Positions 29,401 to 35,400 are shown, counted from the first letter of the stretch. The stretch is DNA of 64,000 nucleotides from Escherichia coli O127:H6 str. E2348/69 (GCF_000026545.1 NC_011601.1), one strand, 5' to 3'. A program made the numbers.

Positions 29401-32400
29401 TACCCTTGCCTCGCTTTCATCACAGTTGAGCGCTTCATCGCCCGGTAGATAATGGCTTTGCCCGATGTAGTCGATCAGTTCCTGCACCAGTACCGACGGG
29501 AAACGTTCACTGTTATCCTGAATGGAACGCCCGATATAGCTGATATAGAGTTTTTGCTGCGCGGAAATTAACGCTTCCAGGAACAGATAGCGGTCATCAT
29601 CGCGACGGCTACGGTCGCCACGCTTCGGTTTCTGGCTCATCAGATCAAAGCCCAATGGCGCAAGCTGACGTGGATAAACGCCGTCGTTCATTCCCAGCAG
29701 GCAAACCACTTTGAACGGAATTGAACGCATTGGCATCAGAGTACAAATGTTAACCGGTCCAGCGAGAAAACGCTGGCTGATACGTTCTTGATCCAGGCGC
29801 AGTGCCAGTTCATCACGCAATAGTGACAGCGGCACCGCGTCGCCATACTGCGCACCTAAACCTTCGGCGATAATCGCCTGCCATTGTTGTTCGATCAGCG
29901 TCATCGCCGCTTCGGTTTCCGCATCCGGCAGGAAAAAGGCGTTGAGCATATCGCGACAAACCGGCAACCACTCTTCCAGCGGACGCTCCTGCGCCAGCCC
30001 GCGACGCCAGATGTTTAGCTGCATTAGCAGTGAAGCCAGATGCCCCACCAGTTCTGCAATTAAGCCGCTCGATTCATCATAAGGTAGAACCGATTGCCAC
30101 TCGCCCTGCGCGCTCTCCATCGCGTAGCCCAGCAACATGCGCGTCAGGCCAAACCGCCAGGTGTGTTGACCGGTAGCGGGAAGTTCCAGCTCGCGAACGT
30201 TGTCGTCATCTATCCCCCAACGAATGCCGGATTCGTTGACCCACTGACGTAAATAACGCAGCCCTTCTTCGGTGATGTCAAACCGCGCTGCCAGCACCGG
30301 CACATCCAGTAATGCCAGCACGTCTTCCGACACAAAGCGGCTGTCTGGCAGCGATAACAGGCTGATAAACGCTTCAAGTACAGGATGCGACTGCCGCGCC
30401 CGACGGTCGGAAATGGCGTAAGGCAGGTAACGATCCGCAGGTGCGCTACCAAACACAGCCTGAATAAACGGACTGTAGCTGTCGATATCAGCCACCATCA
30501 CGATGATGTCGCGCGGAGTAAGTGTCGGGTCTTCCTCCAGCATCGCCAGCAGGCGATCGTGTAAAACTTCAACTTCACGCTGCGGGCTATGGCAAACGTG
30601 GAAGGTGATACTGCTATCCAGTGGATCAAGCGGGCGTTTGTTATCGCTACGGGAAAACTCTTCGATGTTCACACCAGCAACGGCGCGGTTTTCCAGTTCC
30701 AGAATGTCAGACTGAATATTATGCAGCAGGTTATCTGGCGTCACATCGACAAAAGCGTCCAGCTCCTGGCTGCTCTCCAGGTCAGAAAGGAGATAAATGT
30801 AGTCGCGCCCAAGCTTGCCCCATGAAGCCAGCAGCGGGTTGCCGACATCCTGTTCACCATCGCTGTTAAAGAGCTGCCCGGCATTTTCGCTGTCGCGAAA
30901 TAGCGGTAATTCGCGATCTTCAAAACTGTGTCGGCGCTGGCGGGTCAGTAATTTCGCCAGATAAGCAGGATCTTTAATATCGCCCCAGTAATAACGGCAG
31001 GGGTTGGTAAACAGGAGATGGATTTCAATATGTTTACCCAGCGCCTGTAGCGCCTGGAGATAAACAGGCGGTAACGCGGAAATACCGCATATAAAGACGC
31101 GCGAAGGTAACCCCGGCGGGCAGGTCGTCGCGGACTCCAGCGTTTCGATAAAGCGCTGATAGAGATTGGCGCGGTGCCAGCGCGGTTGCCCAAGTTCGTC
31201 GGTATATTCCACCAACGCCTTCCACAACGGCGCTTGCCAGGCCTGTGCTTCTCCCAATCCTTCTACCAGATGTCCTGTTTCCCACTGTGCCAGCCAGTCC
31301 GGACGATAGACCAGATACTGGTCAAACAGGTCCGCCGCTTTTGAAGAAAGCTGGAACAGTTTTCGCTTGTCACTATCGTCAGTCAGATAATGCCGCAACA
31401 GGGTAAAGTCTTCGCGCTCCAACAGTTGCGGCAGCAGAGTCATCAGTTTCCAGCTCATGCTCTGTTTGTTAAAGGCGCTCTCTTTGGGGATCTCCGGTAA
31501 CACCCGGACGAACATATCCCAGATAAAGCTCGCTGGCAGCGGAAAATCAATGTTTGCCGCAATACCAAACTTTTGCGACAGGGTCATTTGCAGCCACTGT
31601 GCCATACCGGTACTTTGCACCAGAATCATCTCTGGTTCGAAAGGATCGTCCAGCCGTTCGCGTTCGACAATAAACTCCATCAACGCTTCCAGCACGTCCA
31701 GACGATTGGAATGGTAGACCCTTAACATAGCGGCTCCTGACTACTGACGATTCGGGCAATGCAGGCGGGTCATCTCGCCTTCTCTGCCCCCGGGTGAAAC
31801 TAGCGTAACGCTGATGCTGACACATCCCGCCTGCGATGTCTGCATTCGGTTGACCTGCCAGTTAGCAGGTGGCGAAATCGCGCGCAGTTGCGTTTGCTGC
31901 CAGCCATGCCGCCAGAGCTGTTGGTACTGGTTTCTGCTGGCAAGACTGTTCATTAATGTTCGCTGGAAACCCGATAACGCAGTGACAATCATCACCATCA
32001 ACACCATCGCCAACATTACCTCCGGCAGACTAAAGCCTTGTTGATTCCTCAGGGAAGCTGACATAACGCCCTCTCTTTCAGCGGACAAAAATCGCTCCAG
32101 CCGCGTGGCGAAAAAACAATGTTTCCATCGATGACTTCGCCTGTTCGCCACAACGAAACGCCTTCATAACCGGCAATCAATAAGGCTTCATTATCTGCCA
32201 GTAAACGCAGACAAACCCGGGCACCGGTGGCAGAATACAGTAAGCACTGAACTGCGGGCTGCATCTGCCAGGAGTGCATTTTTCCCCACTCCAGCGCCGA
32301 CTGAACGATGGCCTGGCGGCGCAATGACTGACTTTCCATGCTCACGCGAGAAGCAAAACTGCGATCCTGCTGACTCATTCCTTGCAATAGCAAGCTACCC

Positions 32401-35400
32401 AAAATCAGCAGCATCAGGACCAGAGCCAGTGACGAAACACCCTTTTCGCGGTTCACAGGTTGGATCCTGTCACGCTATAGCTGGCATCCACCACGGTTTG
32501 CGGATCAGCCTTGCTGGCAGCGTGCATATTAACCGTCAACACCGGCGAGAAGCCGCTGACATCCTGACGTACGACCTGAAAAGTGTCGATAATGATGGCA
32601 TCCGGATTAGTGACTTTATCCCAGCCCTTACCTTCACAGGATGTCGCACCGCGTAGCGTTTCCAGCACATGCTCCTTCAGACGAAATCCAATCTGGTCGG
32701 ACTCTTTTACCGGTTCGCGATCCCAGATACCATTACTGTTCGCATCCCACTGCACAATGACACAGTCACCCTGTCCGACAATTTCCAGCCCTTCGCCCGT
32801 ACAGCTGCCATGGCAATAACCCGCCCTCTGGAGATGCTTCGCGACGGTAAATACCCGCAGCCAGATTTCATCATCCAGCGCCAGCTTACGGGTGTTCGTT
32901 AAACTTTCACGCTGTAACGCAGGCAGAAAGCGTGCAGCCCCCAGCAACAATACGCTACTGATCGCCATAGCAATCAACACTTCCAGCAGAGAAAAACCTT
33001 GCTCTTTTACAGGCATCCTTCTGTTTCTCCTTGCTGACAAAGCCGGAGTCTTCCCCACGGCGAAAGCACCAGCCACCACTCGCCCGTTGAGTTTTTGAAG
33101 CGAATATGCCCGGCCCATGCGGTATTGCGCAGGCCAAAGAAAGCAAGCGAAGGTGTCAGGTCGCTCATTTCGACTTCGGGCCAGCGCGGCACAAAGACCA
33201 ATGGTGAACTGCCATGACAGGTATTCGCCCCAGCAACGGAACTCACAAGGCACCATAACGTCCCCTCCCTGATAAGACTGATACTGTGGTCGCGGTTATG
33301 CCAGTTGGCATCTTCACGTAAATAGAGCAAATAGTCCCGCGCCTGGCTGGCGGTTTGCCAAAGCCGTTGCGACTGCTGCCAGTATTGCCAGCCATAGAGC
33401 CCACTTGCGCTTAGCATGACCAGAATCAGCATCGCGACCAGCGTTTCAATCAGCGTATAACCACGTTGTGTTTTCATGCCGGCAGTATGGAGCGAGGAGA
33501 AAAAAAGACGAGGGCCAGTTTCTATTTCTTCGGCGCATCTTCCGGACTATTTACGCCGTTGCAGGACGTTGCAAAATTTCGGGAAGGTGTCTCGAAGAAT
33601 TTAACGGAGGGCAAAAAAAACCGACGCACACTGGCGTCGGCTCTGGCAGGATATTTCGTAATTAGATAGCCACCGGCGCTTTAATGCCCGGATGTGGATC
33701 GTATCCTTCAATCTCAAAGTCTTCGAAACGGTAGTCGAAGATGGATTCGGGTTTACGTTTGATAATCAACTTCGGCAGCGGACGCGGTTCGCGGCTTAAT
33801 TGCAGATGAGTTTGATCCATATGGTTGCTGTACAGATGCGTGTCGCCACCGGTCCAGACAAAATCACCCACTTCCAGATCGCACTGCTGCGCCATCATAT
33901 GCACCAGTAACGCGTAGCTGGCAATGTTGAACGGCAGGCCGAGGAAGACGTCACAGGAGCGCTGATAAAGCTGGCAAGAGAGTTTGCCGTCTGCCACATA
34001 GAACTGGAAGAATGCATGGCACGGTGCCAGCGCCATTTTATCCAGTTCGCCTACGTTCCACGCTGAAACAATAATGCGACGGGAATCCGGGTCGTTTTTC
34101 AGCTGGTTCAGTACAGTAGTGATCTGGTCAATATGACGACCATCCGGCGTTGGCCAGGCGCGCCACTGTTTACCATACACTGGCCCGAGGTCGCCGTTTT
34201 CATCGGCCCATTCGTCCCAGATGGTGACATTGTTTTCGTGTAGATAAGCAATGTTAGTGTCGCCCTGCAGGAACCACAGCAGTTCGTGGATGATGGAACG
34301 CAGGTGGCAACGTTTAGTTGTCACCAGCGGGAATCCATCCTGCAGGTTAAAACGCATCTGATGACCAAAAATGGAAAGCGTTCCGGTTCCGGTACGGTCG
34401 TTTTTCTGTGTGCCTTCGTCGAGCACTTTTTGCATCAGTTCTAAATACTGTTTCATGGTTCCTCAGGAAACGTGTTGCTGTGGGCTGCGACGATATGCCC
34501 AGACCATCATGATCACACCCGCGACAATCATCGGGATGGAAAGAATTTGCCCCATGCTGATGTACTGCACCCAGGCACCAGTAAACTGCGCGTCGGGCTG
34601 GCGGAAAAACTCAACAATGATGCGAAACGCGCCGTAACCAATCAGGAACAAACCTGAGACAGCTCCCATTGGGCGCGGTTTACGAATATACAGGTTGAGG
34701 ATAATAAACAGCACTACACCTTCCAGCAACAGCTCGTAAAGCTGTGATGGGTGGCGCGGCAGCACACCGTAAGTATCGAAAATGGATTGCCACTGCGGGT
34801 TGGTTTGCAGCAGCAAAATATCTTCTGTACGGGAGCCAGGGAACAGCATGGCAAACGGGAAGTTCGGGTCAACGCGGCCCCACAATTCACCGTTAATAAA
34901 GTTGCCCAGACGCCCGGCACCAAGACCAAACGGAATGAGTGGGGCGATAAAATCAGAGACCTGGAAGAAGGAACGTTTAGTACGGCGGGCGAAGATAATC
35001 ATCACCACGATAACGCCAATCAGGCCTCCGTGGAAGGACATGCCGCCGTCCCAGACACGGAAAAGATACAGCGGATCGGCCATAAACTGCGGGAAATTGT
35101 AGAACAGAACATAACCAATACGTCCACCGAGGAAGACGCCGAGGAAGCCCGCATAGAGTAAGTTTTCAACTTCATTTTTGGTCCAGCCACTGCCCGGACG
35201 ATTCGCCCGTCGTGTTGCCAGCCACATTGCAAAAATGAAACCCACCAGATACATCAGGCCGTACCAGTGAAGCGCCACGGGTCCTATTGAGAAAATGACC
35301 GGATCAAACTCCGGAAAATGCAGATAGCTACTGGTCATCTGTCACCACAAGTTCTTGTTATTTCGCTGAAAGAGAACAGCGATTGAAATGCGCGCCGCAG

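Follow-up and report, generated by a model that had tools for sequence, protein, structure and literature searches.

The ppdA-ppdB-ygdB-ppdC locus of Escherichia coli O127:H6 str. E2348/69, examined here in a stretch of 64,000 nucleotides (below, the window), can be set against several described systems. First, the same locus is known from E. coli K-12 and enterohaemorrhagic E. coli (EHEC) as ppdAB-ygdB-ppdC (b2826-b2823), with identical protein lengths (156/187/135/107 aa), overlaps and neighbours; E2348/69 differs from it only allelically, e.g., by an A for G in the spacer of a CRP-S-like site. The four products restore or prime assembly of the PulG pseudopilus in a pulHIJK mutant (Cisneros 2012, as cited in PMC5131608 and PMC4471445), and they have been used as the minor-pilin module for assembly of the PpdD pilus in E. 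coli (bioRxiv 10.1101/856302). Second, the GspH-GspI-GspJ-GspK set belonging to the type II secretion system (T2SS), represented by E. coli gsp and by the GspIJK complex of enterotoxigenic E. coli (ETEC, PDB 3ci0), is likewise encoded by four co-operonic, overlapping pilin-fold genes (overlaps of -4, -8 and -8 nt in K-12), three of the products having a glutamate at position +5 (Glu5) and one lacking it; the T2SS and Ppd minor sets are reported to be functionally interchangeable in priming (PMC5131608, PMC4471445). Third, Haemophilus influenzae possesses comNOPQ (HI0938-HI0941), four small prepilin-type genes located directly upstream of recC in the same orientation and controlled by CRP-S/Sxy, with comN corresponding to ppdA (PMC1635313, PMC12616744). 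The four E. coli genes were equated with Haemophilus pulG-HI0941 (comNOPQ) in 2006 by size and recC adjacency, and the correspondence is one of synteny and size, homology not having been detected by BLAST (PMC1635313). In 2025, ComN/PpdA was proposed as a DNA receptor in Pasteurellaceae, and the recC linkage and the similarity of E. coli PpdA were noted (PMC12616744). In Haemophilus comN is needed for DNA uptake and transformation, whereas E. coli is not naturally transformable under the tested conditions (PMC3330819). Finally, the enterobacterial set differs from FimU-PilV-PilW-PilX of Pseudomonas aeruginosa and PilH-I-J-K of Neisseria in gene order and in that no PilY1-type adhesin gene follows it.

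According to our analysis, the four genes very probably specify the core minor pilins of a type IVa pilus of enterobacteria, the PpdD pilus, which also goes by the names haemorrhagic coli pilus and competence pilus. The operon would then be one module of the silent type IV pilus and DNA-uptake machinery of E. coli, relevant to DNA uptake in enteric bacteria and to engineered pilus production. It is an already described and annotated E. coli minor-pilin operon, and nothing in the present analysis alters the accepted picture of it. Two things are added here: a suggested H, J, K or I role for each of the four proteins, including YgdB (DUF2509) as a modelled pilin fold that lacks Glu5 family-wide, and the conservation across Enterobacterales of the gene overlaps, the recC linkage and a CRP-S-type site. 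A preliminary description of this DNA had considered the function poorly defined, which is outdated in view of the published priming of the PulG pseudopilus, the PpdD pilus module and the regulation by Sxy.

The window is 100% identical to the genome of enteropathogenic E. coli (EPEC) E2348/69, where RefSeq annotates the identical four genes under the same names. The map of open reading frames (ORFs) and RefSeq agree with the preliminary description on four consecutive genes at 31741-33477, to the exact coordinates, and on overlapping stop and start codons. The gene names are confirmed by RefSeq and by matches of all four proteins to their own NCBIfam equivalogs (PpdA, NF007800, 5e-74; PpdB, NF007848, 8e-99; YgdB and PpdC also match theirs). 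The operon had, however, been placed downstream of recC, which is correct in plus-strand numbering alone; every gene here lies on the minus strand, and in transcriptional terms the operon is upstream of recC. The genes and their neighbours, in the direction of transcription, are as follows.

34456-33662, minus strand: thyA, thymidylate synthase
33477-33007, minus strand: ppdA, 156 aa, following thyA after a 184-nt spacer
33016-32453, minus strand: ppdB, 187 aa, overlapping ppdA by 10 nt (ATGCCTGTAA)
32456-32049, minus strand: ygdB, 135 aa, with a GTG start, overlapping ppdB by 4 nt (GTGA)
32064-31741, minus strand: ppdC, 107 aa, overlapping ygdB by 16 nt
31728-28360, minus strand: recC, exonuclease V gamma, 12 nt after the ppdC stop
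28184-25296, minus strand: ptrA, pitrilysin

A 267-aa ORF at 32453-33256 (minus strand) was rejected as a gene: it is the ppdB frame, which contains no stop over the 80 codons preceding the true ATG (33016) and overlaps ppdA out of frame. In some public assemblies, gene calls of 228-237 aa (four calls) join DUF2509, N_methyl and T2SSppdC and resemble YgdB-PpdC fusions; frameshifts, or the merging of two calls where the genes overlap by 16 nt, are the probable origin.

The N-terminal peptides quoted in the preliminary description are present exactly as given. The strict class III signal pattern, defined after PMC4471445 as a glycine, four residues, Glu5 and a hydrophobic tail with a start codon nearby, occurred three times in a six-frame scan of the whole 64 kb, in each case at the N-terminus of PpdA, PpdB or PpdC, so that the motif is beyond chance. 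The same three proteins exceed the curated cut-off of Pfam N_methyl (PF07963, 21.2 bits), with 30.1 bits (3e-7) for PpdA, 35.4 bits (6.5e-9) for PpdB and 28.8 bits (8e-7) for PpdC; PpdC also matches Pfam T2SSppdC. In YgdB the glycine at -1, Gly(-1), and the hydrophobic helix are present and Ala occupies position +5; no match to N_methyl or TIGR02532 was obtained, and the only family recognized apart from its own equivalog was DUF2509. Prepilin N-termini had been claimed for all four proteins, with a profile search for the N-terminal methylation motif as the way to check it. The search recognizes the motif in three of them and leaves YgdB unrecognized, so the claim stands for PpdA, PpdB and PpdC and not, in its original form, for YgdB.

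The leaders preceding the glycine are short and hydrophilic (PpdA MKTQRG, PpdB MPVKEQG, YgdB (V/M)NREKG). An automated scan of Enterobacterales orthologues found Gly(-1) in every protein with a located motif (78 PpdA, 76 PpdB, 65 YgdB and 79 PpdC), and Glu5 in 77/78 PpdA, 68/76 PpdB, 78/79 PpdC and 0/65 YgdB. Prepilin cleavage after the conserved glycine is predicted between G6 and Y7 in PpdA, G7 and F8 in PpdB, G6 and V7 in YgdB, and G10 and F11 in PpdC. The prepilin peptidase genes sit outside the window; gspO was seen in K-12.

Conservation of the locus was assessed in Enterobacterales with the PpdC alignment as query and one genome per species, yielding 80 loci from Enterobacteriaceae, Erwiniaceae, Pectobacteriaceae and Yersiniaceae. 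The gene order lgt-thyA-ppdA-ppdB-ygdB-ppdC-recC-ptrA is almost universal among them, with a cross-species protein identity of 25-60% for the pilin proteins, 85-98% for ThyA and 61-90% for RecC. The ppdA/ppdB overlap is 10 nt in 52 species and 7 nt in 16 (68/80 together), the 4-nt ppdB/ygdB overlap is kept in 66/76 species, and the 16-nt ygdB/ppdC overlap in 47/76. Duplexes with the anti-Shine-Dalgarno sequence were estimated at -1.7 kcal/mol for ppdA, -8.5 for ppdB, -4.1 (weak) for ygdB and -8.3 for ppdC. The four cistrons may well be translationally coupled, as the preliminary description suggested; this reading is strengthened by the conserved overlaps and fits the GTG start and weak Shine-Dalgarno sequence of ygdB.

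Within E. coli, selection was estimated from six diverse strains, including K-12-like and O157:H7. All four ORFs are intact and of the same length in 6/6 strains, with a mean protein identity of 95-99%. The dN/dS ratios are 0.195 for ppdA, 0.356 for ppdB, 0.202 for ygdB and 0.192 for ppdC, compared to 0.008 for thyA and 0.028 for recC. Selection on the pilin genes is thus still purifying, though clearly weaker than on the neighbouring genes, or else in part diversifying, as it is in many surface proteins; none of the four is a pseudogene. In YgdB, the substitutions observed in E. coli cluster at residues ~56-80, comprising the helix end and the first strands.

These figures bear on the view that the operon is a cryptic relic which drifts to loss and has no present function in E. 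coli. Several observations agree with it: dN/dS is 7 to 45 times that of the flanking thyA and recC, the pilin proteins are far less conserved across Enterobacterales than ThyA, ppdA has no Shine-Dalgarno sequence, and neither natural transformation nor natural induction of Sxy has been found in E. coli (PMC3330819). However, the region is matched at a coverage of at least 80% in 5425 of the 5426 complete E. coli genomes, the intact ORFs of identical length in the six strains have dN/dS well below 1, and Gly(-1), Glu5, the cysteines, the overlaps and the promoter element (see below) are conserved in the 80 species. Moreover, the proteins work when expressed (Cisneros 2012, as cited in PMC5131608; bioRxiv 10.1101/856302). 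Decay towards loss is therefore a very unlikely account of the locus.

Profile comparisons suggest a class for each of the four proteins. First, the model of PpdC comprises a helix and three strands (pLDDT 78.7), and its profile aligns with K-12 GspI (hhalign, 82% probability, E 1.1e-5) over 95 columns spanning helix and sheet, compared to 1% probability for GspK, which suggests an I-type (GspI/PilV-like) minor pilin. Second, the PpdB profile matches Thermus TTHA1219 (residues 4-158, E 1.4e-4), a protein described by its depositors as structurally GspJ-like (PMC5131608), while the direct match of PpdB to GspJ is confined to the N-terminal helix; PpdB appears to be a J-type (GspJ/PilW-like) minor pilin. 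Third, 9 of 40 PpdA orthologues match Pfam GspH (PF12019; best 5e-5), pointing to an H-type (GspH/FimU/FimT-like) role for PpdA. In searches against solved structures, the matches of PpdA were confined to the N-terminal helix, those of the YgdB and PpdC profiles were either noise or restricted to that helix too, and single-sequence searches with all four proteins returned nothing significant.

YgdB departs from the other three. It is modelled confidently as a pilin fold, and the residue at +5 in the 65 orthologues is Ala in 41, Leu in 12 and Glu in none. Only 112 relatives were found in a search of 1.84 billion cluster representatives. In the YgdB alignment (57 relatives), G6, i.e. Gly(-1), is at least 90% conserved and is accompanied by four conserved cysteines and a conserved WxDxCP motif; Glu5 is absent from all the sequences displayed (half of the 57). 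As 24 hydrophobic segments without Glu5 occur in the window, such a segment alone is not distinctive for YgdB. In the K-12 gsp operon, GspG, GspH, GspI and GspJ have Glu5, and GspK (MNNEQRG followed by VALLIVLMLL) lacks it. GspK is also the best match of YgdB among the five K-12 Gsp pilins (33% over residues 1-54), and hhalign gives the YgdB family 36% probability with GspK, over only 18 N-terminal columns, and 3% with GspI. These likenesses suggest that YgdB is a candidate miniature K-type (GspK-like) tip cap, but not a member of the GspK family.

At residues ~73-118 of YgdB (32103-32240, minus strand), the family profile weakly matches the WD40-repeat proteins Utp13 and WDR18 (E 0.08-0.15). 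YgdB itself also matches two giant repeat proteins (P0180 and P0193), in eight stretches each. Both likenesses probably reflect a chance beta-hairpin pattern (LLxG...LW).

Taken in gene order, these assignments suggest the reading H-J-K-I for ppdA-ppdB-ygdB-ppdC, versus H-I-J-K in T2SS operons. The two sets are alike in that PpdC aligns with GspI over its full length and the N-terminus of YgdB is GspK-like; besides the gene order, they differ in that YgdB has no large GspK domain, the locus lies outside a secretion operon, and significant similarity beyond the N-terminal helix is limited to the PpdC-GspI pair. The four proteins could conceivably be accessory pseudopilins of the T2SS and not parts of a type IV pilus at all: in Pfam the family of PpdC is called T2SSppdC, the pseudopilins GspI, GspK and GspH give the best structural and profile matches, and the proteins can prime the Klebsiella PulG pseudopilus, as described in PMC5131608. 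However, a complete gspG-H-I-J-K set is present elsewhere in the E. coli genome, the operon is not adjoined by genes for a secretin, an ATPase or GspC/L/M, and heterologous priming has been read as evidence of a conserved mechanism rather than of the native role (PMC4471445). In addition, co-regulation with ppdD and the hof genes by Sxy has been reported (PMC12616744), and the ppdA and ppdD promoters have in common a CRP-S-type site and an 8-mer, both described below. A native role in type II secretion is accordingly highly improbable.

Induction of the ppdA operon by Sxy together with cAMP-CRP has been reported (Sinha 2009; Jaskolska and Gerdes 2015; both as cited in PMC12616744). The following features were found on the minus strand between thyA and ppdA.

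33613..33644, minus strand: thyA intrinsic terminator, a GC-rich hairpin followed by U8 (-16.6 kcal/mol, z = -2.9 versus shuffles)
33578..33599, minus strand: candidate CRP-S site TTCTTCGAGACACCTTCCCGAA, 22 bp, with the core TTCGA-N6-TTCCC at 33596-33581
33546..33574, minus strand: best sigma-70-like candidate for the ppdA promoter, with -35 TTGCAA (33574-33569), a 17-bp spacer and -10 AATAGT (33551-33546)

The terminator block is conserved in the intergenic alignment and separates thyA transcription from ppdA. The CRP-S-like core (TTCGA-GACACC-TTCCC) has its centre 111 nt upstream from the ATG of ppdA and agrees at 8/10 core positions with TGCGA-N6-TTCCA, the asymmetric CRP-S motif that PMC6728893 quotes for E. 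coli from Sinha 2009. Among 60 distinct Enterobacterales spacers, the columns C6, G7 and T15-T16-C17-C18 are conserved in 43-58/60, the element keeps a fixed distance of 111-112 nt from the ppdA ATG, and the left half reads TGCGA or TGCGG in Klebsiella, Pseudescherichia, Citrobacter and others. With this conserved CRP-S-like site at 33599-33578, the published Sxy regulation of the operon gains a plausible cis element. Palindromic CRP sites (TGTGA-N6-TCACA or TGCGA-N6-TCGCA) were also sought in the thyA-ppdA spacer and rejected, as the best candidates had 3-4 mismatches and the top match fell inside the thyA terminator. The promoter candidate TTGCAA-17-AATAGT has 8/12 hexamer matches and is the best on the minus strand upstream of ppdA in a relaxed scan; a stricter sigma-70 scan of the minus strand gave no site.

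Within this promoter candidate lies a conserved block, CTGCAACG, at 33564-33557 (minus strand), and no block of the ppdA spacer is better conserved in the 60 species than CTGCAAC. CTGCAACG is identical in the ppdA and K-12 ppdD promoters, starting in both cases 35 nt later than the 22-bp CRP-S site. Aligned without gaps from the CRP-S site, the two promoters are identical at 34/72 positions, with TTCTTCG also common to both; 8 of 2000 shuffles do as well. The block is absent from the hofM promoter, and CRP-S promoters have been reported without any shared site besides CRP-S (PMC1635313). It might represent a second promoter determinant, fixed in position and specific to pilus genes, serving as an unusual -35 element or as a contact for Sxy or another factor, but we consider this doubtful; if true, it would matter for the unsettled question of where the specificity of Sxy comes from. 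The likeness could equally be a coincidence between two promoters, or the block could be an ordinary weak -35 region or the -35 of a class I promoter. A sigma-54 reading of TTGCAAC-N4-TGCAAC was rejected by eye, the GG and GC dinucleotides not being at the required 12-nt spacing.

At the other end of the operon, recC has a strong Shine-Dalgarno sequence of its own (AGGAG), and no terminator-like site was found at the ppdC-recC junction. The 12-nt ppdC-recC gap occurs in 45/77 species, and the linkage itself in nearly all the 80 loci. Since no terminator precedes recC, transcription from the ppdA promoter should run into it, and recC is probably co-transcribed when that promoter fires. The linkage varies in several species. 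In Dickeya oryzae and D. undicola, ptrA directly follows ppdC and no recC is detectable in the locus (loci L068 and L070, positions ~6300-6400). Erwinia mallotivora and Erwinia sp. 198 have more than 1.1 kb of extra DNA between ppdC and recC (loci L066 and L079, positions 6290-7550), compared to 12-30 nt in most species.

That the main selected role is to place recC under competence control, the pilin genes being chiefly a transcribed leader that brings Sxy/CRP transcription to recC, would agree with the terminator-free 12-nt gap, the nearly universal linkage and the same linkage reported in Pasteurellaceae (PMC1635313, PMC12616744), but is barely credible, as purifying selection acts on the four coding sequences in their own right and their pilin motifs are conserved, the two Dickeya species keep the four genes without an adjacent recC, and recC, which has a strong Shine-Dalgarno sequence of its own, must be constitutively expressed.

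If the products of the four genes are the minor pilins of the PpdD pilus, as we prefer, the following mechanism can be proposed. Each product would be synthesized in prepilin form and enter the inner membrane, and a prepilin peptidase encoded elsewhere (GspO or PppA) would cut it after the conserved glycine. By analogy with GspH-I-J-K, PpdC (I-type) would pair with PpdB (J-type), and YgdB (K-type) would cap the pair; lacking Glu5, YgdB would need no subunit above it. The first PpdD subunits would be joined to this tip complex through PpdA (H-type), and the complex would prime filament assembly and end at the pilus tip. This order of subunits is modelled on the T2SS set. Expression would normally be silent, driven by a weak promoter downstream of the thyA terminator and dependent on cAMP-CRP and Sxy at the CRP-S site. 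The 10-, 4- and 16-nt overlaps would couple translation of the four cistrons, and transcription would continue into recC.

A number of results weigh against parts of this scheme. As regards the protein classes, YgdB reaches only 12.1 bits against the NCBIfam GspK model (NF037980), whose cut-off is 130 (E 0.1, residues 12-60 only), and it has 135 aa versus 327 aa in GspK, the large GspK domain being absent; the PpdA of the window does not match Pfam GspH PF12019 itself. As regards expression, an 8/10 match to the CRP-S core is expected by chance about once per seven 184-nt spacers, so that the case for the site rests on its conservation, and its position of about -49 relative to the best -10 fits neither standard class I nor standard class II CRP spacing. 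Natural conditions that induce Sxy are not known (PMC3330819). No recognizable Shine-Dalgarno sequence was found at ppdA (33478-33497, minus strand); this is consistent with the replacement of the ppdA ribosome-binding site in the PpdD pilus engineering study, which was made in order to get pili (bioRxiv 10.1101/856302). Finally, neither a strict nor a relaxed scan found an internal recC promoter, yet recC must be expressed without Sxy.

The search for RNA families (Rfam) gave no match in the operon region. Elsewhere in the window, and unrelated to the operon, it identified the GcvB small RNA, the tandem small RNAs OmrA/OmrB, a triplet of identically scoring tRNA genes and another single tRNA; the matches are located at 6645-6850 (plus strand), 45403-45687 (minus strand), 11174-11467 (plus strand) and 58257-58327 (minus strand).

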